A DNA stretch of 64,000 bases from Firmicutes bacterium UBA2203. GTDB taxonomy: Bacteria; Bacillota; Desulfotomaculia; Desulfotomaculales; Nap2-2B. Under the pieces are notes generated by a model. The model did not search any database and had not been told where the DNA came from. It was given only the letters and a program-made list of their open reading frames with translations. Shown here in pieces: positions 4,294-53,526 of the stretch; the stretch's first letter is position 1; each line of letters starts with the position of its first letter. The stretch lies in the NCBI GenBank assembly GCA_002327235.1, contig DCUX01000004.1:93553-157552 (forward strand), in the 5' to 3' direction. The position numbers and the translations under genes were made by a program.

Positions 4294-4323
4294 GGTAGGG
4301 GCGTATGGCCATACGCCCCTACC
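4294..4323. repeat. 30-nt perfect palindrome GGTAGGGGCGTATGG|CCATACGCCCCTACC (palindrome family, copy 1)
   Basis: Read directly. The same core recurs at 15522-15549. Confidence 0.9.
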
Positions 4324-4407: not shown

Positions 4408-5601
4408 TTATGTGCCCTTGTGCCCTTGTGCTTCTTTTATCTGCTGGGCCAATTTGTATCCTTCCTCCAGGCTTAAAGCGCAGTTACGAATTGAGTATTG
4501 GGCGGCGTTAATTTTTGCTTGTTTACATAACTTGTTTCTTAATTCATCCTGTCCCAAAACTAATTTTATTTTGGCCGCAAACTCGGCTATGGTCTCCCTT
4601 TCCCTGTTGAGTTTTGGCGTAATTAAAAACCCGTCTTCCCCATCGGTCACCATCTCTTTGACTCCATAAGCCGACAAGGCAATAATAGGCAAACCGGCGG
4701 CTTTAGCTTCAGGCAATACTAAGCCTTGTGTTTCGGTTACTGAGGCAAAAACAAATAAATCGGCGGAATAGTAACATTCAATAACCTTTTCTTTAGGTAA
4801 CGCTCCTGTAAAAACCAGTTTTGAAGCAATTCCTAACTGCTTAGCAAGGTATTTTAGGTTTTTTTCTTCTGGTCCCCCACCTACTAAAACTAACCTGGTC
4901 GCCGGAAATTCTTCCTGTACTTCTTTATAAACTTGTAAGAGGAAGGGCAAGTTTTTTTCTTGACCTAAACGCCCTACAAACAAAAGAACTTTTTCTTTAG
5001 CCGCAAGATTATAACTTTTCCTTAACCAGGAACCGTTGGCCTTTATTATGGTAAAATCATCCATATTTAGGCCAGTTGGAACTTTTTTTACCGGAACGGT
5101 CACCCCTAACCCCTTTAAATAATTACCAATTTCTGCCGTAGGTACAATTATTAAGTCACATTTATTACAAAAATTACGGCAAAAAAACCGGGTGGTTTTT
5201 TTAGTGATTTTTGGCGCCAAGGGAAAATAATGGACGTACTCTTCATAAAGGGTGTGAAAAGTAAAGATAAGAGGAATGCCGAGTTGTTGGGCGTAATGTG
5301 CGCCTAATTGACCTAACATAAAGGGAGAGTGGACGTGAATTATGTCGGGTTTCCAGCAATGGACAAGTGATTTTGCGCGCCGGGATAAAGGCAACGCAAT
5401 GGTAAAGTCAGGGTTAGTAGGGGCAGGAATGGACTTAAAACGAAATATACTTTCTTCCTTGTCCCGATAATTTGGATAGCTAGGGACAAAAAGATGGATA
5501 TTATGACCTAAAGCGGTTAATTCTTTTTTGAAGGTTTCAAGCGATATTACCACCCCACTAGTGTAAGGACGATAGCTATCCGCAAAGAAAGCAATTTTCA
5601 T
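4408..5601 (-). CDS. GT4-family glycosyltransferase, similar in N-terminus to 1,2-diacylglycerol 3-alpha-glucosyltransferases (glycolipid synthases)
   Basis: MKIAFFADSYRPYTSGVVISLETFKKELTALGHNIHLFVP is a typical GT4/MGS-like start. The C-terminal half carries the GT-B E-x7-E region (ETQGLVLPEAKAAGLPII). The start lies 3 nt after the pfkA stop. Confidence 0.8.
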   Translation of the reverse strand: MKIAFFADSYRPYTSGVVISLETFKKELTALGHNIHLFVPSYPNYRDKEESIFRFKSIPAPTNPDFTIALPLSRRAKSLVHCWKPDIIHVHSPFMLGQLGAHYAQQLGIPLIFTFHTLYEEYVHYFPLAPKITKKTTRFFCRNFCNKCDLIIVPTAEIGNYLKGLGVTVPVKKVPTGLNMDDFTIIKANGSWLRKSYNLAAKEKVLLFVGRLGQEKNLPFLLQVYKEVQEEFPATRLVLVGGGPEEKNLKYLAKQLGIASKLVFTGALPKEKVIECYYSADLFVFASVTETQGLVLPEAKAAGLPIIALSAYGVKEMVTDGEDGFLITPKLNRERETIAEFAAKIKLVLGQDELRNKLCKQAKINAAQYSIRNCALSLEEGYKLAQQIKEAQGHKGT

Positions 5602-11020: not shown

Positions 11021-12235
11021 TTAAAAGGCCTTCTTTTCCCCTTTTTGTCTTAAAAGGGCTTGGACTTTTAAAGGCAAACCAAATAAATTAATGAAACCGG
11101 TAGCGTCTGCCTGGCGGTAAATTTCTTCTTGACCAAAGGTAGCCAGTTCCTGGTGGTATAAGGAATAGGGTGAACTGACACCGGCGGGGGTGCAGTTTCC
11201 TTTGTAAAGCTTCAGGCGCACTTTACCTGTCACCGTCTGCTGGGTAGATTTTACAAAAGCATCCAGGGCCTTTTTAAGCGGGGAAAACCATAAGCCGTCG
11301 TATACTAGTTCGGCGTAACGTTGCGCAACTATTTCCTTAAAGTGCATGGTTTGACGGTCCAAAGTTAAATATTCTAATTCCCGGTGCGCCAGGTAGAGTA
11401 TAGTTCCGCCCGGTGTTTCGTACACCCCGCGTGACTTCATTCCCACCAGGCGATTTTCCACTAAATCAACCACTCCAATACCATTTGCCTGACCCAGCCG
11501 GTTTAACTCTTCCACTAGGGCCACGGCCGGCATTTGTTGGCCGTTAATTTCCCTGGGGAGGCCTTCCACAAAGGAAATCTCCACGTAGGCAGGCAAATCA
11601 GGGGCTTTTTCCGGCGGAACAGTAAGCTGCAGCAAATCTGAGGGTGGTTCCTTGGCCACGTCTTCTAAGTCTCCGCCCTCGTGGCTCAAGTGCCAGAGGT
11701 TGCGGTCCCGGCTATAAGGATCTTTTTTGGTAACCGGAATAGGAATATTTCTGGCGGCCGCGTAATCAATAGCCTCTTCCCGGGAGCGAATGTCCCACTC
11801 GCGCCAGGGGGCAATAATTTTTAAGGCAGGGTCGAGGGCTTTAACGCTCAGTTCAAAACGGACCTGGTCGTTGCCCTTACCGGTAGCGCCGTGGGCAACC
11901 GCCTCAGCCCCTTCTTTTTGGGCGGTTAAAACCAGGTATTTAGCAATTAAAGGGCGGCCTATAGACGTGCCTAAAAGATATTTACCTTCGTAAACCGCCC
12001 CGGCTTGTAAGGTTGGAAAAATATACTCTTCAATAAATTCTTGTTTTAAATCTTCCAGGTAAAATTTACTGGCGCCGCTTTTTAAGGCTTTTTCCCTTAA
12101 GGGGGCCAGTTCCTCTCCCTGGCCCAAATCTGCCGCCAGGGCAATAACTTCGCAGCGGTAATTTTCTTTAAGCCAAGGAATAATAATAGAGGTATCCAGG
12201 CCGCCCGAATAAGCTAAAACTACTTTTTTGACCAT
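11021..12235 (-). CDS. argG: Argininosuccinate synthase
   Basis: [12 protein letters not shown]-binding motif and [13 protein letters not shown]. Confidence 0.95.
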
Positions 12236-12252
12236 TTTTTAAACCCCTCCTA

Positions 12253-12335
12253 TTTGGAGGTTAGAGGTTGGAGGTTAGAGGTTGGAACTTTTTGATTCCA
12301 ATTCCAACTTCCACTTTCCACCTTCTACCTTCCAA
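12253..12335 (-). repeat. Heptad-array hairpin element, copy a (argF|argG gap)
   Basis: Plus strand reads (GGAGGTT/AGAGGTT)x4, a T-rich loop, then an inverted CCAAC/CCACY array. On the mRNA-sense strand it ends CCTCCAAA-TA-GGAGGGG-N9-ATG(argG). Confidence 0.9.
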
Positions 12336-15483: not shown

Positions 15484-15521
15484 TTTATAACTCCTTTTGA
15501 TGTAGGATAACCCCTTTTGAT

Positions 15522-15549
15522 GTAGGGGCGTATAGCCATACGCCCCTAC
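15522..15549. repeat. GC-rich palindrome GTAGGGGCGTAT-GGCT/AGCC-ATACGCCCCTAC (palindrome family, copy 2)
   Basis: 12-bp perfect stem directly abutting the argJ stop codon. On the mRNA-sense side it is followed by a 20-nt tandem duplication containing the argB SD. Confidence 0.9.
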
Positions 15550-25685: not shown

Positions 25686-26933
25686 TTAAGCACGTTTAAT
25701 ATTAGCGCCTAAAGCATTGTATTTATCCTCCATTTGTTCATAGCCACGGTCAATGTGCTCTATCCCTTCAATAACCGTATTGTTTTCCGCGGCTAAAGCA
25801 GCCAATAATAAAGCGGCCCCAGCCCTTAAATCAGTTGCTTCTACCGGTGCCCCGCTTAATTTTTTTACCCCTCTAATAATGGCGGTTTGACCCTCTACGG
25901 TAATTTCAGCCCCCAGGCGCCTTAATTCACTAACGTGCTGGTAGCGGTTTTCAAAAATTGTTTCGGTAACTACACTGGTTCCCTGGGCTAGGGTCAGCAA
26001 GGCCATCATTTGGGGCTGTAAATCGGTGTGAAAACCAGGGTAAGGCATTGTTTTAATGTTGGTAGCTTTTAAGCAGCCGGTTGAGCTTAATTTTATAGCC
26101 TCATCTTTGACCTCCACCTTTACCCCTATTTCCTTTAGCTTAGCTAGTAGTGATTCCAGGTGTTCCGGGATAACATTGGTTACCGTAACGTCTCCGCCGG
26201 TGATTGCCGTCCCGATTAAATATGTACCTGCCTCTATACGGTCGGGAATTACGGCGTGTTCGGCATTATGCAGGGTCGTTACTCCTTCAACTTTAATTAC
26301 ACTTGTTCCGGCCCCTCTGATTTTGGCCCCTAGGTAGTTAAGAAAATTCTGTAAATCAACTATTTCTGGCTCCCTGGCGGCATTTCTAATTATAGTTATT
26401 CCTTTGGTCATTACCGCCGCCATCATAATATTTTCGGTTGCCCCGACACTTGGTACATCCAGGTGTATTTCGGTTCCCTTTAAGTTTCCGGCCTTTACGT
26501 TGATATAACCGTACCTTTCGTTTATATCGGCTCCTAATGCCCTTAAGCCTTTTAAGTGTAAATCCATGGGCCGGGAACCAATATTACAACCCCCTGGATA
26601 AGAAATTTTTACCTGTTTAAAGCGCCCCAACAGAGGGCCTAAAACCAGGTTGGAAGCCCGCATCTGACGCATTAAATTTTCTCCTACTTCCCAACTATAA
26701 ATATCCCGGGTATTTATAATTAAAGTATTACCTTCCCGTTTGACTTTTGCCCCCAGGGTTTCCAGGACGCTGCTCATGGTAATAATATCCTGCAGTTGCG
26801 GTACTTCGTGAATGATACATTCCCCAGCGGCCAGGATACTGGCGGCCAAAATCGGCAAGGTAGCATTTTTACTGCCGTTTACGGTTATAGTTCCTTTCAG
26901 GTGGTTACCTCCGGTAACTATAAATTTGGCCAT
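25686..26933 (-). CDS. murA: UDP-N-acetylglucosamine 1-carboxyvinyltransferase
   Basis: Active-site Cys context YPGGCNIGSRPMDLHL. EPSP-synthase-like fold length. Confidence 0.95.
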   Translation of the reverse strand: MAKFIVTGGNHLKGTITVNGSKNATLPILAASILAAGECIIHEVPQLQDIITMSSVLETLGAKVKREGNTLIINTRDIYSWEVGENLMRQMRASNLVLGPLLGRFKQVKISYPGGCNIGSRPMDLHLKGLRALGADINERYGYINVKAGNLKGTEIHLDVPSVGATENIMMAAVMTKGITIIRNAAREPEIVDLQNFLNYLGAKIRGAGTSVIKVEGVTTLHNAEHAVIPDRIEAGTYLIGTAITGGDVTVTNVIPEHLESLLAKLKEIGVKVEVKDEAIKLSSTGCLKATNIKTMPYPGFHTDLQPQMMALLTLAQGTSVVTETIFENRYQHVSELRRLGAEITVEGQTAIIRGVKKLSGAPVEATDLRAGAALLLAALAAENNTVIEGIEHIDRGYEQMEDKYNALGANIKRA

Positions 26934-26946
26934 TTTATTTCACCTC

Positions 26947-27906
26947 TTAATCCTCCCCGACTATTCGAATTTCCAAGGCTAACTGGATACCAAATCGTTG
27001 CGCCACCATTTCCTGAACCTGGGATATAAGGTCTTGCACCTCTTTGGCCCGCGCCCCCCCTAAGTTAACAATAAAATTAGCGTGTTTTAACGATACTTTA
27101 GCTGCTCCAATTTGCCGTTCCTTTGCTCCTGCCTGTTCAATTAAGTATCCGGCGGCAAAACCAGAAGGGTTTTTAAAAACACTGCCGGCACTGGGGTACC
27201 TAAGCGGTTGAGTAATCTGCCGACGGCGGAGATATTTTTTTTGTCTTTCGGCAATATATTCCTTTTGGTCCGGTACTCCTTGGCAAACTACTTCTACCAC
27301 TACCTGGTCACAGCCTAATAAATTGCTGCTCCGGTACCCAAATCCTAAATCCTCTTTTTTTCGCCGGACAAAATAGTTTTTTTGGTCCAGAACCAGGACT
27401 TCCTGCACTACATCACTCATAGCGCAGCCTTCGGCCCCGGCATTCATTACAATTGCTCCCCCTACTGTTCCAGGAATACCGACGGCAAACTCAAAACCGG
27501 CCAGGTTGGCTTGACAGCAATTCAAGGCTAAGCGGGACAAGGCTGCACCGGCTTCTGCCACAACCGTAAGACCGTCTATTTTAATCTTGGCCAGATGACG
27601 GTCTATTTTTATTACCATACCCCTAATTCCACCATCACGAACCAGTAAATTAGAACCGGCTCCCATTACAAAGAAAGGGATATTTTTGTCTTTAGCGTAA
27701 AAAATTGCTTCCTTTAAAGCAACTATTGTACGAGGTTCAATAAAAATATCCGCTGGTCCGCCAATCCGAAAGGTAGTGTGTTGAGACATTGGTTCTTGTA
27801 AACGCACCTGATTGGGCAAAAACTGCTTTAATTCTTTATAAACGGCTTTACATTCCTGGTTAGGCAGGTAAGAAGAACCGTTTTTACTCACGCTGTATAC
27901 CCTCAT
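26947..27906 (-). CDS. murB: UDP-N-acetylenolpyruvoylglucosamine reductase
   Basis: FAD-binding block FRIGGPADIF...MGAGSNLLV and a C-terminal MurB domain. Confidence 0.95.
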   Translation of the reverse strand: MRVYSVSKNGSSYLPNQECKAVYKELKQFLPNQVRLQEPMSQHTTFRIGGPADIFIEPRTIVALKEAIFYAKDKNIPFFVMGAGSNLLVRDGGIRGMVIKIDRHLAKIKIDGLTVVAEAGAALSRLALNCCQANLAGFEFAVGIPGTVGGAIVMNAGAEGCAMSDVVQEVLVLDQKNYFVRRKKEDLGFGYRSSNLLGCDQVVVEVVCQGVPDQKEYIAERQKKYLRRRQITQPLRYPSAGSVFKNPSGFAAGYLIEQAGAKERQIGAAKVSLKHANFIVNLGGARAKEVQDLISQVQEMVAQRFGIQLALEIRIVGED

Positions 27907-29396: not shown

Positions 29397-29667
29397 GTAA
29401 CTACTAAGGTTCAAAGGGGCAAAGGCACAAAGTTTTTTGCCAGAATTGCCTGTCCGTCAGGCCTGTCCGTCAGGCTGTCAGGCAGGTAATCTATCAATGT
29501 AAAGTAATCTATCAGCCTGACAGACAGGCGGGCAGATCTCTATAAGTTTTCATCCGAAAATCCTTGGATTTTCATTCTCCTTTGTGCTGAGCTATTGCCA
29601 GCATGGATGTTTCATTTCCCTATGTGCCTATGTGCCTTTGCCCCTTTGTGCCTTCCTGAATAGTTAC
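29397..29667 (-). mobile_element. MITE-like element, long copy carrying nested inserts; fills the murG|murC gap
   Basis: TIRs GTAACTACTAAGG (29397) and CCTGAATAGTTAC (29655-29667). The internal blocks are colinear with the short copy at 23876-23992 but interrupted by extra sequence. The murG stop codon (29664-29666) lies inside the right TIR. Confidence 0.7.
29448..29535 (+). repeat. CAGGC-type hairpin repeat, copy a, nested inside the MITE-like element
   Basis: GCCTGTCCGTCAGGCTG pairs with CAGCCTGACAGACAGGC (17 bp, 1 mismatch). The loop contains the direct repeats GTAATCTATCA. Confidence 0.75.
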
Positions 29668-30787: not shown

Positions 30788-31900
30788 CTAAACTCTCCTT
30801 GTGTGCCGGGAAATATTAAGCAAAATTCCTACCCCGGCTAGCGTAAAAACCAGCGAGGTGCCCCCAAAACTGATAAAGGGAAGGGTAATACCCGTAATAG
30901 GAAAGGTGCTGGTTACTACCCCGATGTTTATAATGGTCTGGAGGGCTATACCACCAACAATGCCCGCGGCCAACAAGCTGCCAAAGGGGTCAGGAGAAGT
31001 AATAGCGATTCTAAAACCACGCCAAAAAAAAATAAGGAATAGAAAAATAACCAGACAAGCGCCAATAAAGCCTAGTTCCTCGCCAATTACCGCAAAAATG
31101 AAGTCCGCTTCTCTGATGGGCAGGTAAAGGAACTTGGAATGCCGCCCCTGACCTAAGCCAGTACCCAAAAGTCCTCCTGAGCCTAAAGATAATAAAGAAT
31201 TTAAAATATGCCAACCGCTGCCGGCGGGGTCTTTTTCGGGATTCAAAAAGGCCAGAAAACGTTTCAACCGGTAAGGCTCCTGCCATATGGCCAGGGCAAC
31301 TGCTCCTATTCCCAGGGTGGCTAGGGCCGCCAGGTGTTTAATTCTCGCTCCAGCCACAAAGAGCATAATAAAGATTGTTCCGGCCAGGGTTACGGTGGTG
31401 CCTAAATCGGGCTGTTTCATAATTAAGCCGGCGGCAAGGCCTAAAATTAATAGGTAAGGCAAAATCCCCCGCCAAAAATTAAATACCTTTTCCGGGTAAC
31501 GGGATAAGCCGTAAGCCGTAAAAATTACCAAACAAAGTTTGGCCAATTCAGAAGGTTGAAAACTTAAAGAACCCATTCTTAACCAGCGCTGCGCGCCGAG
31601 TTTTTCCACCCCAAGGCCAGGAATTAAAACGGCCGTCAAAAGAATAAGGGCGGTAATTAATAAGCAACCAGACCATTTTTTAAGGTGCTGGTAATTATAA
31701 TAACGCCAGAAAAAAAACAGGGTAAATAAACCCAGGCCGGCGTAAATTAGCTGGCGGGTAAAAAAGTAGTAGGGATTATTAAAAGGGGGAAACATAGCGT
31801 AATAACAACTGGCACTAAATACCATCACAATTCCTATACTTAAAAGTATAAGCACGGTAAGAAAAAGAATAAGATCTGATGATTGTTTTATATGTCTCAT
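30788..31900 (-). CDS. ftsW: SEDS-family peptidoglycan glycosyltransferase FtsW/SpoVE
   Basis: 10-TM SEDS protein with conserved LQPSE-like (FQPSELAKL) and PDLGT blocks. Confidence 0.9.
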   Translation of the reverse strand: MRHIKQSSDLILFLTVLILLSIGIVMVFSASCYYAMFPPFNNPYYFFTRQLIYAGLGLFTLFFFWRYYNYQHLKKWSGCLLITALILLTAVLIPGLGVEKLGAQRWLRMGSLSFQPSELAKLCLVIFTAYGLSRYPEKVFNFWRGILPYLLILGLAAGLIMKQPDLGTTVTLAGTIFIMLFVAGARIKHLAALATLGIGAVALAIWQEPYRLKRFLAFLNPEKDPAGSGWHILNSLLSLGSGGLLGTGLGQGRHSKFLYLPIREADFIFAVIGEELGFIGACLVIFLFLIFFWRGFRIAITSPDPFGSLLAAGIVGGIALQTIINIGVVTSTFPITGITLPFISFGGTSLVFTLAGVGILLNISRHTRRV

Positions 31901-31916
31901 ATTACCTTTAACTCCC

Positions 31917-32005
31917 TTTTGGAGGTTAGAGATTGGAGGTTAGAAGTTAGAGGTTAGAGTTTTAAATCCAACCTCCAACCTCCAACCTCCAACCTCCAAC
32001 CTCCA
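31917..32005 (-). repeat. Heptad-array hairpin element, copy b (murD|ftsW junction)
   Basis: Plus strand reads GGAGGTT AGAGATT GGAGGTT AGAAGTT AGAGGTT, a loop, then (TCCAACC)x5. The mRNA-sense 3' end is CCTCCAAAA-GGGAG-N12-ATG(ftsW). The 5' arm lies inside the murD ORF. Confidence 0.9.
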
Positions 32006-33341
32006 TTTGAAGTTCCAGGACAGTTTTTCGAAACAGGTTGCCTCTTTCCACGTAGTCGCAAAACATATCCCAACTGGCGCAAGCTGGAGATAATAAAACT
32101 ACTTCTCCCGGTTGAGCTAACTGGCAAGCTGATAAAACTGCCTGTCTTAAATCTTGCGTTCGTACCACCTTAGCCACCCCGGCCTGTTTAGCTTCTTTCT
32201 CCAATTCACCGGCGCATTCCCCCAGGGTAATCAATACCCGGACCTTTTCTTTAATCTTTTGCGCTAAAGCGGTAAAACTGTTTCCTTTGTTTTTGCCGCC
32301 AGCCAGTAAAATGATGGGAGCGGTGAATGCTTCCAAAGCTCTAATGCTGGCTTCAGGGTTGGTTCCCTTGGAGTCATTTATATAGCGTACCCCGTTAATC
32401 TCAGCCACAAATTCCAGCCGGTGAGCCACCCCTTTAAAGAGGCGTAAAGTTTTAGCTACTTTCAATGGTTCAATTCCTAAGACTAAGGCGCTGGCCGTGG
32501 CAGCCAGGACGTTTTCCAGATTATGTGCTCCGGGGAGTTGAATTTCTTTTACCGGTAAAACAGGTTCTATTTTTCCGGAAAGATTACTAATAATCCAATC
32601 ATTTTGCGTATAAACCCCTTTTTCTAAAATACGCCGGCGGCTAAAAAATATAACTGTTCCGGGAGAATAAACAGCCAGGTTTTGGGTATAAGGATCATCA
32701 AAATTTAAAATAGTAAAATCACTTGCTTTTTGATTTTCAAAAATTTTTATTTTAGCGGCGGTATAATCAGTTAAAGTTTTATGCCGGTCTAAATGATCAG
32801 GCGAAATATTTAAAATAACAGCCACTTGCGGCTGGAAAAAAACAGTTGTCTCTAATTGAAAACTGCTCACTTCAGCCACCACAACATCGCGGGCGGTATA
32901 GTTTTCTATTTTTGTTATCAGGGGAAGACCAATATTGCCGGCCACTAGGGTGTTTAAACCGGCGTTTTTACATATTTCCCCAACTAAAGTAGTAGTGGTG
33001 GTCTTACCGTTAGTACCGGTAATGGCTATCATAGGAGCTAAAGCGTACCAGTAAGCTAGTTCCAGTTCACTTACCACCGGAATATTTAAATTTTTAGCCT
33101 GGACTACCGGAGGTATATCCAGCGGTACGCCCGGGCTTACAACTACCAGGAAATAATCGCCGGGCTTAATTAAGGGGTAGCCAGGCAGACATATCTTTAC
33201 GCCGGCATCCTCCATGGCGGCCAGTTTTTCCGCGGCAATGTTTTGTTTGTCTGTAAGCACTACCTCAGTACCTTTACGGTTTAAAAACCAGGCCGTCGCC
33301 AGACCCGTTTTACCTGCCCCAATTACTAATACTTTATTTAT
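31962..33341 (-). CDS. murD: UDP-N-acetylmuramoylalanine--D-glutamate ligase; start re-assigned upstream to a non-canonical codon
   Basis: GTNGKTTTT motif. The ORF-track start (GTG at 33260) removes the Rossmann motif. In-frame upstream codons read (I)NKVLVIGAGKTGLATAWFLNRKGTEVV with no ATG/GTG/TTG. ATA at 33341 lies 9 nt after GAAGGGAG. Confidence 0.85.
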   Translation of the reverse strand: MNKVLVIGAGKTGLATAWFLNRKGTEVVLTDKQNIAAEKLAAMEDAGVKICLPGYPLIKPGDYFLVVVSPGVPLDIPPVVQAKNLNIPVVSELELAYWYALAPMIAITGTNGKTTTTTLVGEICKNAGLNTLVAGNIGLPLITKIENYTARDVVVAEVSSFQLETTVFFQPQVAVILNISPDHLDRHKTLTDYTAAKIKIFENQKASDFTILNFDDPYTQNLAVYSPGTVIFFSRRRILEKGVYTQNDWIISNLSGKIEPVLPVKEIQLPGAHNLENVLAATASALVLGIEPLKVAKTLRLFKGVAHRLEFVAEINGVRYINDSKGTNPEASIRALEAFTAPIILLAGGKNKGNSFTALAQKIKEKVRVLITLGECAGELEKEAKQAGVAKVVRTQDLRQAVLSACQLAQPGEVVLLSPACASWDMFCDYVERGNLFRKTVLELQMEVGGWRLEVGGWI

Positions 33342-33360
33342 ATAAATTATCTCCCTTCTA

Positions 33361-33449
33361 TTTGGAGGTTAGAAGTTGGAGGTTAGAAATTAGAGTTTGG
33401 GTTTTTGATCCAATTTCCAATTTCCAACCTCTAACCTCCAGCCTCCAAA
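33361..33449 (-). repeat. Heptad-array hairpin element, copy c (mraY|murD gap)
   Basis: GGAGGTT AGAAGTT GGAGGTT AGAAATT..., a loop, then ...CCAACCTCTAACCTCCAGCCTCCAAA. The mRNA-sense 3' end is CCTCCAAA-TA-GAAGGGAG. Confidence 0.9.
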
Positions 33450-51045: not shown

Positions 51046-52326
51046 CTAACGCCTGTATCTTTTAATCGGGTAACTCCGTAAGATATAATTTTGGCGTGCC
51101 CGTCTTTGTTTTACCCGGCTATAAAAGTGCGTAAAAATTAATAATGATACCGGTAAAGTCAACCACCCCAACCACAAAGGATATTTTTTTTCTACTGGCT
51201 GGTCGGTTATTAAATCTACCCGGCCTAACTCCTGCCCTTCCTGAAGAAAGATTAATTCCCCTCCCTTTTTGCCTTTGGGAAGGGGGGCGCGAAGTTCTTC
51301 GTTTAAGGTAACTTGACGGTCAAAGGACTGATCAGGTAAATATTTATTGTGCCCGGCCGGAAAATTAAGATAAAAAGAATTTTTGGCCACTAAATTTACC
51401 ACCTCTTTTCCTTGCCGTGCTTTCAAAGAGGATATTTTTGCTCCTTTGTTAACAACCGGGGTAGTTGCAAAACCATTAAAACCGTAGTCCAATAAATTAA
51501 TGGCGTCATGGGTAATATTCGAACCCTGGCTTTTTAGAACTACCGCGATTAGCTCTCTATTCCCGCGTTTGGCTTGGGCCACTATACATTGGCCTGCTTC
51601 CACCGTATACCCTGTTTTAACCCCGATTGCTCCAGGGTAAAGAGACAATAACCGGTTATGATTCCACAAATGTTCCTGCGGCGGTCCTTTGCTGCGGTCA
51701 GCCAGGGGCCTTTGAATTACCGCCAGCCGGGTGGCTACTATTTGCCGAAAAATAGGGTCTTGCATGATTTTTTGCGTTATAAGAGCTAAGTCGTAAGCGG
51801 TAGTGTAGTGTAAAGGATCGGGTAAACCGTTGGGATTGATAAAATTGCTTTCTTTGGTCCCGCATGAGCGCGACCATTCGTTCATTAAGGCGGCAAATTC
51901 AATTTCTGAGTTAGCGATATGCATAGCCAAAGCGGTGGCGGCGTCATTGCCTGAGGCTAACATTAAAGCGTATAAAAGGTCTCTTAAGGATAATTGTTCC
52001 CCTTCCTGCAGGCCAATAGACGAGCCGTCTTGCAAACAGGCGGCCCGCGGTATAGTGACTATATCGTCAAGTTTACCTTTTTCTATCGCGACCGCCGCCG
52101 TTATTATTTTGGTGGTGCTGGCCGGATACATCAAGCGGTGCATATTTTTTTGGTAGAGCACTTGTTTATTACAGGCATCCATTAATGCAGCCGCTTCACC
52201 ATCAATATCCGGAACTTTAGTGGCGCTGGCCTCTAAAGAAAGAGGAAACATAAAAACAAAAAAAAGAAAAAAAAGAAAAAAAAGAAAAAAAAGAAAAATA
52301 ACTGGCTTTATTTCAATTCTTTTCAT
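51046..52326 (-). CDS. D-alanyl-D-alanine carboxypeptidase (peptidase S11, DacB/DacF-like)
   Basis: SxxK (ASTTK), SxN (ASGND) and KTG (KTGYT) motifs. N-terminal signal peptide and a C-terminal membrane anchor. Confidence 0.9.
   Translation of the reverse strand: MKRIEIKPVIFLFFLFFLFFLFFVFMFPLSLEASATKVPDIDGEAAALMDACNKQVLYQKNMHRLMYPASTTKIITAAVAIEKGKLDDIVTIPRAACLQDGSSIGLQEGEQLSLRDLLYALMLASGNDAATALAMHIANSEIEFAALMNEWSRSCGTKESNFINPNGLPDPLHYTTAYDLALITQKIMQDPIFRQIVATRLAVIQRPLADRSKGPPQEHLWNHNRLLSLYPGAIGVKTGYTVEAGQCIVAQAKRGNRELIAVVLKSQGSNITHDAINLLDYGFNGFATTPVVNKGAKISSLKARQGKEVVNLVAKNSFYLNFPAGHNKYLPDQSFDRQVTLNEELRAPLPKGKKGGELIFLQEGQELGRVDLITDQPVEKKYPLWLGWLTLPVSLLIFTHFYSRVKQRRARQNYILRSYPIKRYRR
52252..52296 (-). 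repeat. 9-nt tandem repeat (AAAAAGAAA x4 plus one variant) inside the dac signal peptide
   Basis: Encodes FLFFLFFLFFLFFVF on the minus strand. Confidence 0.9.
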
Positions 52327-52329
52327 AAT

Positions 52330-53526
52330 TTAACGGCGAACTTTAAGTTTTTTCACCGCCTGCTCCAATCCTTCCACCGTTAGTTCAAACATTGGAAATA
52401 CCCGGCTGATGGCTTTAATTGTTTCGTTCCCCCAGGCGTAGGTCCAGGTTTTTTGAGGAACAGGATTCAACCAAACCGACCGGGTAAAATGGGTAGCCAG
52501 TTTTTCCAGCCAGGACAGTCCTGTTTCACCGTTAAAGTCGTACCAATCAATTACTCCGCCTACCATTAACAGTTCACTGGCGGCCATGCTGGCGTCGCCG
52601 ACAATTATTAAGTAGTAATCCTGATCCAAATTTTGCAGCATCTCCGAAGTAGGCATAGAAGCAAAGCGATAGCAATACGGGTCAAGGTAAATCTTTTCGT
52701 AAACACAATTATGAAAATAATAAAACTTTAAATCTTTAAAGTGGCCTACTTTATGTACGGCGTTAAAAAGTTGAGCGCAAAGCCTGGCGTAAGGGTCCAT
52801 GGAGCCGCCGGAATCCATTAAAACCAGCAATTTTACGGTGTTTTTCCGCGGCCTGGTCCAGATTATTTTTAAATACCCGGCGTTGCGGCAGGTAGCGTCA
52901 ATAGTATTTTCTAAATCCAGTTCATCTTTTGGCCCTTCGTCCCGGTATCCCAGGGTGCGAAGTTTGCGTAAGGCCAGTTCAAAGTGCCTGGTGTTTAAGG
53001 TTTCATCGTTACGAAAATCGCGGTAGCGGCGCTCTGCGGCTACTTTTACGGCGGAAAGATTTAAAGATTCGCCCCCAATGCGCACGCCGGCCGGATGATA
53101 ACCTGAATGGCCAAAGGGGGAGGTGCCCCCCGTGCCAATCCAGCGTGAACCGCCGTGATGTTCCCCGGTTTGCTGGGCTAAAAGTTCGGCTAATTTTTTA
53201 CGTAAGGTATCCAGGTCCCAGGAAGAAAATTTTTCCCTTTGGGCGGGGTCCATCCATAAAGGAGGCAAAGAACGCTCCAGCCATTTCATTGCTTTTTCAG
53301 CTATTTCAGGCGAGGCTTCAATCCCTTTAAAATATTGTTGAAACGCCTGGTCAAAACGGTCGTAATACGCTTCGCTTTTTACCAGCAAAGCCCGCGCCAG
53401 GTAATAAAATCCTAGCAGGCTGTTTTGGGCCAGTCCTTTATCCAGGGCTTCCATTAGCATCATCCACTCGTTTAAGGAAACAGGAATCCCTTCTTGTTTA
53501 AGGAAGTAAAAAAAACCGCTAAACAA
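52330..53526 (-). CDS. CoxE-like vWA-domain protein
   Basis: 398 aa with a TTG start after AGGAG. C-terminal vWA-like block with a MIDAS-type start (VLMDSGGSMDPY). Partner of the upstream MoxR-type ATPase. Confidence 0.7.
   Translation of the reverse strand: MFSGFFYFLKQEGIPVSLNEWMMLMEALDKGLAQNSLLGFYYLARALLVKSEAYYDRFDQAFQQYFKGIEASPEIAEKAMKWLERSLPPLWMDPAQREKFSSWDLDTLRKKLAELLAQQTGEHHGGSRWIGTGGTSPFGHSGYHPAGVRIGGESLNLSAVKVAAERRYRDFRNDETLNTRHFELALRKLRTLGYRDEGPKDELDLENTIDATCRNAGYLKIIWTRPRKNTVKLLVLMDSGGSMDPYARLCAQLFNAVHKVGHFKDLKFYYFHNCVYEKIYLDPYCYRFASMPTSEMLQNLDQDYYLIIVGDASMAASELLMVGGVIDWYDFNGETGLSWLEKLATHFTRSVWLNPVPQKTWTYAWGNETIKAISRVFPMFELTVEGLEQAVKKLKVRR

Follow-up and report, generated by a model that had tools for sequence, protein, structure and literature searches.

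Heptanucleotide-repeat hairpins between operon genes of a Desulfotomaculales bacterium: a probable family of insertion-polymorphic foldback elements

In Xanthomonas, arrays of the heptamer GGGAATC form 70-75 convergent pairs per genome that lie between co-oriented open reading frames (ORFs) and are able to form stem-loops, and both the length and the sequence of these arrays vary between close relatives (Rehm et al. 2015, PMC4692102). Nostoc carries heptamer repeats of the form GGGGA(C/T)T (PMC4692102), and in Beggiatoaceae, Cyanobacteria and Bacteroidetes intergenic arrays of TAACTGA end directly upstream of start codons, for which translational regulation has been proposed (MacGregor 2015, PMC4679880). 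According to the summary of Mrazek et al. that the latter paper gives, heptamers are the most abundant class of long simple sequence repeats (SSRs), with polymerase slippage as the proposed cause (PMC4679880). Here, we analyse three inverted heptad arrays, designated elements (or copies) a, b and c, in a stretch of 64,000 nucleotides from Firmicutes bacterium UBA2203 (contig DCUX01000004.1, positions 93,553 to 157,552), referred to below as the window. Located at the argF-argG, murD-ftsW and mraY-murD junctions, respectively, the elements are hairpins of 85-90 nt with the general architecture (RGAGGTT)n / AT-rich centre / (AACCTCY)n. Older descriptions of related repeats reportedly include the cyanobacterial short tandemly repeated repetitive (STRR) heptanucleotide sequences of Mazel in 1990 and the prokaryotic long SSRs of 5-11 nt of Mrazek in 2007. 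Effects on mRNA stability or RNase III processing are known for repetitive extragenic palindromic (REP) sequences, bacterial interspersed mosaic elements (BIMEs) and REPINs, and for palindromes of the MITE type (miniature inverted-repeat transposable elements) such as Correia, ERIC and RUP.

We propose, with a probability of roughly 60%, that the three loci are copies of a lineage-specific, DNA-level family of foldback heptanucleotide repeats that is nearly neutral. The hairpins themselves, which the first-pass annotation had recognised from the letters alone, are real according to shuffling, tandem-repeat detection and folding, all of which agree. A search for double heptads (up to three mismatches) gave 22 matches against 5.2 +/- 2.3 in shuffles (maximum 13), and 20 of these 22 fall within the three elements. 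Tandem Repeats Finder (TRF) reports periods of 7 and 14 on both arms of every copy (2.7-5.6 units, 78-100% matches), with the inverted arms separated by 2-22 nt. Folded as minus-strand RNA, copy a reaches -33.1 kcal/mol (z -3.7), copy b -70 to -76 kcal/mol (-75.6; z -15.5) and copy c about -50 kcal/mol (-50.3; z -7.7), with stems of 30-39 pairs, and none of 200 shuffles folds as well as any of them. Copy a is present base for base (100% identity) in four other, independent metagenome contigs and is therefore not an assembly artefact.

The placement of the elements between cistrons, each abutting the Shine-Dalgarno (SD) sequence of the next gene, is borne out by the ORFs and by Pfam domains on identical or related contigs (OTCace and Arginosuc_synth; Glycos_transf_4 for MraY, Mur_ligase for MurD and FTSW_RODA_SPOVE), all three pairs of flanking genes being co-directional on the minus strand. 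Copy a begins 5 nt downstream of the argF stop (TAA, 12343-12341) and copy c 4 nt downstream of the mraY stop (TAA, 33456-33454), and the murD stop (TAA, 31964-31962) lies inside the hairpin loop of element b. At the other end, CCTCCAAA is followed by TAGGAGGGG, AGGGAG and TAGAAGGGAG in copies a, b and c; only 0-5 nt separate the element from the SD, and the next start codon comes 16-19 nt past each element, a gap that is exactly SD plus spacer. Element b is partly translated (Table 1): MurD ends in ...LELQMEVGGWRLEVGGWI in the window, in ...LELQMGS in the element-free allele of the relative L128 and in ...LELLNGG in the relative L125, and the alignment with Desulfofundulus MurD stops at ...LEL. 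This rewriting of the MurD C-terminus by the repeat is evidently tolerated.

Table 1. Positions of the heptad elements, their parts and neighbouring features in the window
Feature	Position	Strand	Sequence or remark
Element a, argF-argG	12253..12335	-	reads TTGGAAGG...CCTCCAAA; full minus-strand reading AAATTGGAAGGTAGAAGGTGGAAAGTGGAAGTTGGAATTGGAATCAAAAAGTTCCAACCTCTAACCTCCAACCTCTAACCTCCAAATAGGAGGGG
Element a, 5' arm	12335-12300	-	units TTGGAAG/GTAGAAG/GTGGAAA
Element a, loop	12299-12290	-	AAUCAAAAAG
Element a, 3' arm	12289-12253	-	units CCTCTAA/CCTCCAA
Element b, murD-ftsW	31917..32005	-	reads TGGAGG(TTGGAGG)4...CCTCCAAAA; full minus-strand reading CAAATGGAGG(TTGGAGG)4TTGGATTTAAAACTCTAACCTCTAACTTCTAACCTCCAATCTCTAACCTCCAAAAGGGAG
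Element b, 5' arm	32005-31967	-	perfect (GGAGGTT)5.6 run, 100% homogeneous (TRF)
Element b, loop	31966-31959	-	
Element b, 3' arm	31958-31917	-	mixed TCTAACC/TCCAATC units
MurD C-terminal tail encoded by element b	32003-31965	-	EVGGWRLEVGGWI; last 13 codons are the 5' arm
Element c, mraY-murD	33361..33449	-	reads TTTGGAGG...CCTCCAAA; full minus-strand reading CATTTGGAGGCTGGAGGTTAGAGGTTGGAAATTGGAAATTGGATCAAAAACCCAAACTCTAATTTCTAACCTCCAACTTCTAACCTCCAAATAGAAGGGAG
Element c, 5' arm	about 33450-33410	-	
Element c, loop	33409-33401	-	
Element c, 3' arm	33400-33361	-	
argG ribosome-binding region, native	12233..12252	-	TAGGAGGGGTTTAAAAA + ATG (12235-12233)
ftsW ribosome-binding region, native	31898..31916	-	GGGAGTTAAAGGTAAT + ATG (31900-31898)
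murD ribosome-binding region, native	33339..33358	-	GAAGGGAG + 9 nt + ATA (33341-33339)
murB-murA junction, empty in the window	26930..26953	-	GGATTAA / GAGGTGAAATAAAATGG; TAA directly followed by GAGGTGAAATAAAATG
murG-murC spacer composite	29400..29664	-	fold -101 kcal/mol

The decisive evidence comes from orthologous junctions, for which the window was set beside about 240 kb of sequence from relatives (contigs labelled L125, L126 and so on). The best MurD and ArgG relatives are Peptococcaceae metagenome-assembled genomes (MAGs), including Peptococcaceae bacterium SCADC1_2_3 (SCADC) from methanogenic alkane-degrading cultures (PMC4161757); next come Desulfofundulus and other Desulfotomaculum-like genera, with about 60% MurD and 80% ArgG identity. 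Among strains that are 86-96% identical, the comparison, which the first-pass annotation had suggested as a check, brought out presence/absence polymorphism at murD-ftsW and argF-argG, among others. The murD-ftsW junction is empty in L128 (94% MurD identity; CTTCAAATGGGGAGCTAAAGGTAATATG) and in L126 (86%), carries a four-unit hairpin in L125 (94%) whose 28 of 28 pairs are Watson-Crick and whose mirror includes the A/G pattern of the units, and has six units in one arm and four in the other in L156 (93%). The argF-argG junction is empty in SCADC (96% ArgG identity; TAAATAACTCGGGAGAGGAGCTTAAAAAAATG), holds two palindromes of a GTAG-headed type in L185 and has an unrelated 60-nt spacer in L184. 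At mraY-murD, the six GGAGGTT units of the window face about 3-3.7 units in L128, with a centre as in copy b, a (CAAAGGCA)n hairpin in L125, GACGTCR-unit hairpins in L126 and L127, and (GTTCGAA)5 in L156, that is, four different repeat units among five related strains.

The same turnover is seen at junctions where the window has no GGAGGTT element. At murB-murA, empty in the window, L125 and L126 have a 105-nt GAGAGGT/CCCACTTCTCA hairpin, and L128 has a 72-nt hairpin of the CCTGTCCGTCAGG type set exactly between TAA and GAGGTG. The murG-murC spacer of the window is a composite in which an outer hairpin of 8-nt units, (CACAAAGG)x4 at 29654-29619 paired with CTTTGTGCCTTTGCCCCTTTG near 29440-29410, encloses an inner hairpin of CCTGACGGACAGG units at 29448-29535; this junction is empty in L126 and carries other inserts in L125 and L128. 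At argJ-argB, a GTAG-type palindrome in the window has (TTAGTTG)n as its counterpart in relatives. Further copies of the GGAGGTT family were found at the X-purE and purE-purB junctions of L143. Across alleles, fold energies range from -28 to -76 kcal/mol, and strains about 94% identical differ at one junction in presence, unit number and even unit type. Judged from these alleles, the elements are shown to be young, dispensable and insertion-polymorphic and to change by whole units.

Wherever junctions were compared, what stands right of the insert is the native SD with its spacer. The empty alleles keep their SD (CAAATGGGGAGCTAAAGGTAATATG at murD-ftsW of L128, GGGAGAGGAGCTTAAAAAAATG at argF-argG of SCADC), GAGAGGGGTTTAAAAAATG of the argG SD region recurs in L184 and L185, neither of which has a heptad element there, GGGGAGCTAAAGGTAATATG of the ftsW SD region recurs in the empty allele L128, and AATGGGGAGGTAATTT stands right of the insert in all five mraY-murD alleles although the inserts are quite different. 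Since empty alleles keep the SD, the element abuts the ribosome-binding site (RBS) and does not bring it along, contrary to what the first-pass annotation had considered. For this reason, a mobile RBS cassette supplying its own SD to the downstream gene is very improbable: copies a and c do share ...CCTCCAAATAG(G/A)AGG past the hairpin, but the element stops before the SD, and SD and spacer are nearly identical in alleles that have no element or an unrelated insert.

The arms of the hairpins have histories of their own. In copy a they differ unit by unit and systematically (GTGGAAG against the complement TTGGAGG), as expected if arms are homogenised separately, and in L125 perfect mirror symmetry has reappeared; the alleles show, as read from their units, that each arm can be homogenised on its own. 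This bears on two further observations of the first-pass annotation, namely that all copies share one orientation relative to transcription and that the mismatches of copy b are G.U pairs on the sense strand. The first is true, yet it carries no information, since (GGAGGTT)n-loop-(AACCTCC)n reads identically on the opposite strand, and an orientation is defined only by the loop, A-rich on the sense strand in all three copies, and by the mismatches. The second holds for copy b but does not prove selection on the RNA, as the minimum free energies (MFEs) on the sense and antisense strands are -33.1 and -35.2 kcal/mol for a, which folds better antisense, about -70 and -46 for b, and about -50 and -47, nearly equal, for c; a clear sense-strand advantage is limited to copy b. 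There, a homogeneous (GGAGGTT)5.6 5' arm faces an older, mixed 3' arm, which gives the G.U pattern, and this 5' arm is one recent slippage expansion, not evidence of RNA-level selection. Moreover, a C-to-T bias on the non-template strand would mimic G.U enrichment anyway. When the MFEs of both strands were compared over 15 hairpins (8 GGAGGTT-type and 7 with other units), no consistent bias was found, which speaks against selection for sense-strand RNA structure as a general rule: at such junctions, hairpins and arrays with other units fold better antisense in six of seven cases (three by 6-17 kcal/mol, three by 2-4), the seventh, the GTTCGAA array of L156, folding slightly better on the sense strand.

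We can thus outline how such elements may come and go. The repeats would originate or insert within the gap of a few nucleotides that separates a stop codon from a pre-existing SD, the arrays would grow and shrink in 7- and 14-nt steps through slippage, and the arms would now and then be re-symmetrised through inverted duplication by intramolecular template switching; copy-and-paste or conversion between copies may also take part, as their shared termini and centre argue. Presumably co-transcribed with the operon, an element would fold into an RNA hairpin of 30-39 bp which, having no U tail, should not terminate transcription. With the anti-SD-like 3' arm taken up by its SD-like 5' partner, the real SD would stay free and the insertion would be tolerated, as folding also suggests. 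Any effect on expression would probably be generic to long intercistronic hairpins, either as a barrier to 3' exonucleases protecting the upstream cistron or as a target of RNase III. A required, conserved function is unlikely, given that some alleles at these junctions are empty and others hold unrelated hairpins.

Known classes fit these elements to different degrees. The features of an inverted heptameric SSR pair are all present: at least three head-to-tail 7-nt units, convergent G-first arms, an intergenic position between co-oriented ORFs, and unit-number polymorphism, with 5.6, 4 or 6 units among alleles of copy b and 6 or about 3-3.7 among those of copy c. A MITE would have terminal inverted repeats and a target-site duplication of constant length; here the whole heptad element is an inverted repeat, and the direct repeats at its flanks vary (see below). 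A REP head is lacking, as the termini (A/T)TTGGAGG...CCTCCAAA have no GTAG, and the units GGAGGTT and AGAGGTT have GG runs only, short of the runs of at least three G per unit that G-quadruplex heptamers have. Against Rfam 15, the whole window gave no match at the gathering threshold; in E-value mode, whatever the three elements drew, on both strands, stayed below threshold, and nearly every match was to a eukaryotic or viral miRNA-precursor model, that is, to a generic long hairpin. A terminator scan of 29-34 kb called nothing at 31917-32005 or 33361-33449, and terminator and promoter counts in that interval were not above those of shuffles; as the tails of the elements (AAAAGGGAG, AAATAGAAGG and AAATAGGAGG) contain no U tract, these stem-loops are not intrinsic (Rho-independent) terminators. 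An intrastrand triplex of G-arm, C-arm and SD (PMC4666352) was considered, and nothing here requires it.

Heptad arrays of this kind are not confined to one lineage. In scans seeded with an AACCTCC pattern, a collection with one genome per species searched with AAYYTCYAAYYTCYAACCTCCAA, which shows breadth but not abundance or unit preference, placed AACCTCC arrays in Chloroflexota, Acidobacteriota, Bacteroidota, Armatimonadota, Bacillota, Planctomycetota and others among the matches listed, and a stricter pattern gave at least 51 metagenome stretches. Among the matches listed, 120 loci of many phyla, together 870 kb, have 7 nt as their modal tandem period; it accounts for 278 of 944 arrays, with over 130 different units. 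Some copies sit inside structured RNAs. In the 16S rRNA of a Bacillota MAG (L020 2568-2710, minus strand of the locus), a 138-nt insert occupies the loop of helix 6 (V1), its outer arms consisting of GGAAGTT/GGAGGTT/AGAGGTT heptads and their complements; in the S-adenosylmethionine (SAM)-I riboswitches of two Anaerolineae (L023 1704-1912; L110 3529-3717), an 81-nt heptad hairpin, GGAAATT/AGAGATT... facing ...CCAACTTCC, occupies the P3 apical loop, and the riboswitches still score above the Rfam threshold. Other heptad hairpins lie between tRNA genes. A search of 2.9 million viral contigs turned up only 9 stretches, which gives no sign of phage-borne spread. Approaching the gene context of AACCTCC arrays in other phyla through ORFs told nothing, as long spurious frames result from high-GC genomes and stop-free heptads.

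The arms of these hairpins follow a fixed order. Where an AACCTCC-type array has an inverted partner within 150 nt, the genome (GTDB) set has 19 loci with the G-rich arm first and 1 with the opposite order, and the metagenome set 14 and 0, which makes 33 against 1 altogether among the matches listed, and inverted pairs of unrelated units with a clear G/C skew show the same tendency (about 10 G-first, 1 C-first). A C-first hairpin would fold just as well as a G-first one, so the bias calls for an explanation. The polarity might come from template switching by fold-back that only the G/T-rich nascent strand can start, or from selection against a long C-rich, G-poor arm that, emerging first and unpaired, would be a Rho-loading site.

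Several points weigh against nearly neutral local repeats. The final 25 nt of the 3' arm (TAACCTCCAAYYTCTAACCTCCAAA), the termini (ATTTGGAGG...CCTCCAAAT) and the centre GGAT(T/C)(T/A)AAAA are common to the copies, which hints, on sequence grounds, at copy-and-paste or gene conversion over independent local growth. Few-nucleotide gaps are hit repeatedly, yet the 190-nt pbp-murE spacer is free of repeats in three strains, which suggests targeting beyond a selection filter alone. The GGAGGTT hairpin in the 16S rRNA loop stands at a site that has no SD to seed it. Folding predicts what could be a genuine three-part switch, so a function is possible, and among the eight GGAGGTT-type hairpins the sense fold is better, at least slightly, at four of five independent junctions. 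Finally, repeat copy numbers from short-read metagenome assemblies may be unreliable, a limit that applies to the direct heptad arrays compared among contigs encoding the identical ArgG protein (P0125), in which the (TTTAGGA) array has 14.7 or 4.7 units and the (ACTAAAAACTATCC) array 8.9, 4.9 or 1.9.

Among the alternatives, an element of the MITE or REP-like type mobilised in trans is possible, without being the outcome we would expect. Here, a transposase encoded elsewhere would read the heptad arms as terminal inverted repeats and insert them by SD-like targets. The ends and centre shared by non-orthologous copies, the repeated hits in tiny stop-to-SD gaps and the similar hairpin in the 16S rRNA loop speak for it, and a true GTAG-type REP-like family does occupy the same junctions. 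The flanks are equivocal: they carry direct repeats that match imperfectly and vary in length (CAAATGG / CAAAAGG around copy b, TTAAGA at murB-murA of L125), the family-4 insert of L128 at murB-murA has none, and a constant target-site duplication was not found. Nor was a transposase identified, with the limit that the ORFs of the 64-kb window were not scanned for Y1 transposases. The fixed G-first polarity would be expected of the terminal inverted repeats of one element, but it occurs in unrelated units and many phyla as well, which a single transposase cannot explain. Alleles differ in the number of units per arm, the steps being whole units, and in the murB-murA insert of L125 and L126 the G-arm start CAGTTGAGAGGTGA nearly copies the local SD region CAGTTAAGAGGTGA, favouring local duplication over import. 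As a general rule, an origin seeded locally by SD sequences was rejected in its turn: it suits murB-murA in L125/L126 and, loosely, the GGAGGTT sites, but it explains neither the CAAAGGCA, GACGTCR and GTTCGAA units nor the copies inside the loops of rRNA and riboswitches.

It is unlikely that the elements are selected for mRNA processing or stability, the duplex being kept as an RNase III target or as a block to 3'-to-5' exonucleases, thereby letting mraY, murD and ftsW, as well as argF and argG, differ in stability. Precedents exist, since REP/BIME and Correia-type elements uncouple cistron stabilities in other bacteria, and RNase III cutting of long double-stranded RNA and REP-mediated stabilisation are established. 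The stems are long and nearly perfect (z down to -15), read-through is expected from the missing U tract, the elements always lie within co-directional operons, and some hairpin stands at mraY-murD in five of five strains though the sequences differ. However, the empty alleles at murD-ftsW, argF-argG, murB-murA and murG-murC imply that a hairpin is dispensable there, and unit number and stability vary widely among alleles.

A broader reading, tentative at best and decidedly unlikely, is that heptad-array hairpins form a cross-phylum, transposase-free and self-propagating foldback class with a strict polarity, G-arm 5', on both strands, colonising only sites where a helix is harmless, and that this polarity is either enforced at the RNA level or comes from directional fold-back replication. 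The colonised sites would be stop-to-SD gaps, apical loops of 16S helix 6, the P3 loop of SAM riboswitches and tRNA spacers. The RNA-level rule would be that a C-rich arm transcribed first is a naked Rho-loading site and transcribed second is paired at once, and GGAGGTT, as the universal SD/anti-SD pair, might be a convergently favoured seed.

Still more doubtful is a translational switch, in which SD, anti-SD and anti-anti-SD would form a device that sets the ratio of neighbouring cistrons. The closed hairpin would free the SD; with the 5' arm removed by RNase cleavage, or occupied by ribosomes finishing the upstream gene, as could happen in copy b, whose entire 5' arm is traversed by the murD frame, the (AACCUCC)n arm would pair with the SD and lower initiation. 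In partition-function folding, the SDs of ftsW and murD are predicted to be unpaired with probability 0.8-0.99 in the full element and below 0.1 (more than 90% paired) with the 3' half alone, so mutually exclusive pairings that expose or hide the SD exist in silico for b and c; copy a is ambiguous, its argG SD being partly paired even with the complete element. In all three copies, 3-9 nt separate the final CCUCC from GGAGG or GGGAG. However, any C-rich arm beside an SD would yield the same folding prediction, which is thus no evidence of design. Conservation at orthologous junctions is absent: strains 86-96% identical manage with empty alleles or unrelated inserts, including hairpins that contain no SD-like sequence (CAAAGGCA, GACGTCR, GTTCGAA and CCTGTCCGTCAGG units), and the same heptads occur in Bacteroidota, which rarely use SD sequences, and inside rRNA and riboswitch loops.

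The murD gene downstream of element c raises a separate point, as its start is apparently a non-canonical ATA (Table 1). From an in-frame TAA in the 3' arm of element c to the GAGKTG nucleotide-binding motif there is no ATG, GTG or TTG; the ATA is conserved in position in L125 (directly after an in-frame TAA), L126 and L128, and the Desulfofundulus MurD alignment begins at residue 2. With no canonical codon nearby, gene callers shorten the protein to 421-447 aa.

Other repeats were met along the way. The GTAG-headed, REP-like family (GTAGGGGCGTAT...ATACGCCCCTAC), whose head sets it apart from the heptad elements, has GGTAGGGGCGTATGGCCATACGCCCCTACC as a perfect palindrome and occurs in the window at 4294-4323 and about 15520-15547 (minus strand); one copy lies directly 3' of the argJ stop, and behind it 20 nt of the argB SD region are duplicated. 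In relatives, the (TTAGTTG)n array at argJ-argB has 19.6 perfect copies in L180 (6675-6854), 16.6 in L181 (6628-6786), which encodes the identical ArgG protein, and 5.6 in L184 (6712-6785; ArgG 94% identical); behind the array come (CCAAAGA/CCAACGA)n and, after these, the SD AAAAAGGAG. Within the window, 8-nt units of TGTGCCCT at 4411-4431 overlap the 3' end of ORF 4408-5601. A (AAAAAGAAA)x5.2 array at 52252-52298, T-rich on the minus (coding) strand, sits at the border of the minus-strand ORFs 52330-53526 and 51046-52326, and the called start of the latter is probably too far upstream. In fermentation and bioreactor metagenomes (L139, L148, L152, L154 and L178), long satellite-like blocks are built of (AACCTCY)n, (GACCAAA)n and GGGACGRGGA-type units in alternation and are organised unlike simple hairpins.

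In this Peptococcaceae lineage, to which anaerobic alkane degraders belong, operon junctions are hot spots of mutation: hairpins appear there, switch to another unit and disappear again within about 5% protein divergence. Gene calling is affected, as the MurD tail, the ATA start and inflated "intergenic" gaps illustrate; heptad arrays are hard to assemble correctly from metagenome reads, and claims about the expression of these operons need to account for the hairpins. Beyond the lineage lies the puzzle of why a 7-nt period is preferred and why the same units recur in distant phyla, for which the G-first polarity and the tolerance of inserts in rRNA and riboswitch loops offer handles that are testable in cultured carriers such as Tepidiforma flava, Algoriphagus iocasae and Marinicellulosiphila megalodicopiae. 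If the translational switch were true, the elements would be a naturally tunable spacer that sets cistron ratios in 7-nt steps.

It remains to place these elements among the systems described so far. The first-pass annotation did not recognise them as a known repeat family, and this stands for the unit and the host: no description of the GGAGGTT unit or of this lineage was found in the literature, where GGAGGTTGGAGGTT and its variants led to one unrelated paper that has the string. It does not stand for the class, as intergenic heptamer repeats, including inverted stem-loop pairs, have been described (PMC4692102, PMC4679880). Like the GGGAATC pairs of Xanthomonas, the elements consist of 7-nt tandem units, lie mostly in intergenic DNA between co-oriented ORFs, have the G-rich array first and vary among relatives. 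The Xanthomonas arrays, however, lie close to the upstream ORF, with about 160 nt between them and the downstream ORF, whereas the heptad hairpin here fills the entire stop-to-SD gap and may enter the upstream ORF; compared with the Xanthomonas and Nostoc repeats, its unit is not a classical G-quadruplex former, it mimics the SD and anti-SD, and its host is a Firmicute. With the TAACTGA arrays, the elements share heptamers ending before start codons and a puzzling cross-phylum spread of one unit, but those are direct repeats of 2-6 units of another sequence, with one inverted case reported, whereas the long inverted hairpin is the norm here. The preference for period 7, the intergenic location, the hypervariability and the proposed polymerase slippage are common to the STRR sequences and long SSRs, which are direct arrays for which neither a hairpin architecture nor SD adjacency is described.

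Similarly, the elements resemble REP, BIME and MITE palindromes in being short, non-coding, multi-copy, located within operons, presumably co-transcribed and insertion-polymorphic, and differ from them in having no GTAG head or known transposase and in having internally repetitive arms that change by whole units; GTAG-type palindromes coexist with them in this genome as a separate entity. With the SD/anti-SD/anti-anti-SD switches of riboswitch platforms and coupling hairpins they share predicted alternative pairings that hide or free the SD, but there is no ligand or sensor part here and no conservation among close relatives, and the "switch" would be a by-product of the unit sequence. What is new in these elements is the unit that mimics SD and anti-SD, the host lineage, the exact stop-to-SD placement with partial translation in copy b, the replacement of one unit family by another at a single junction, the quantified polarity, and the occurrence in rRNA and riboswitch loops.

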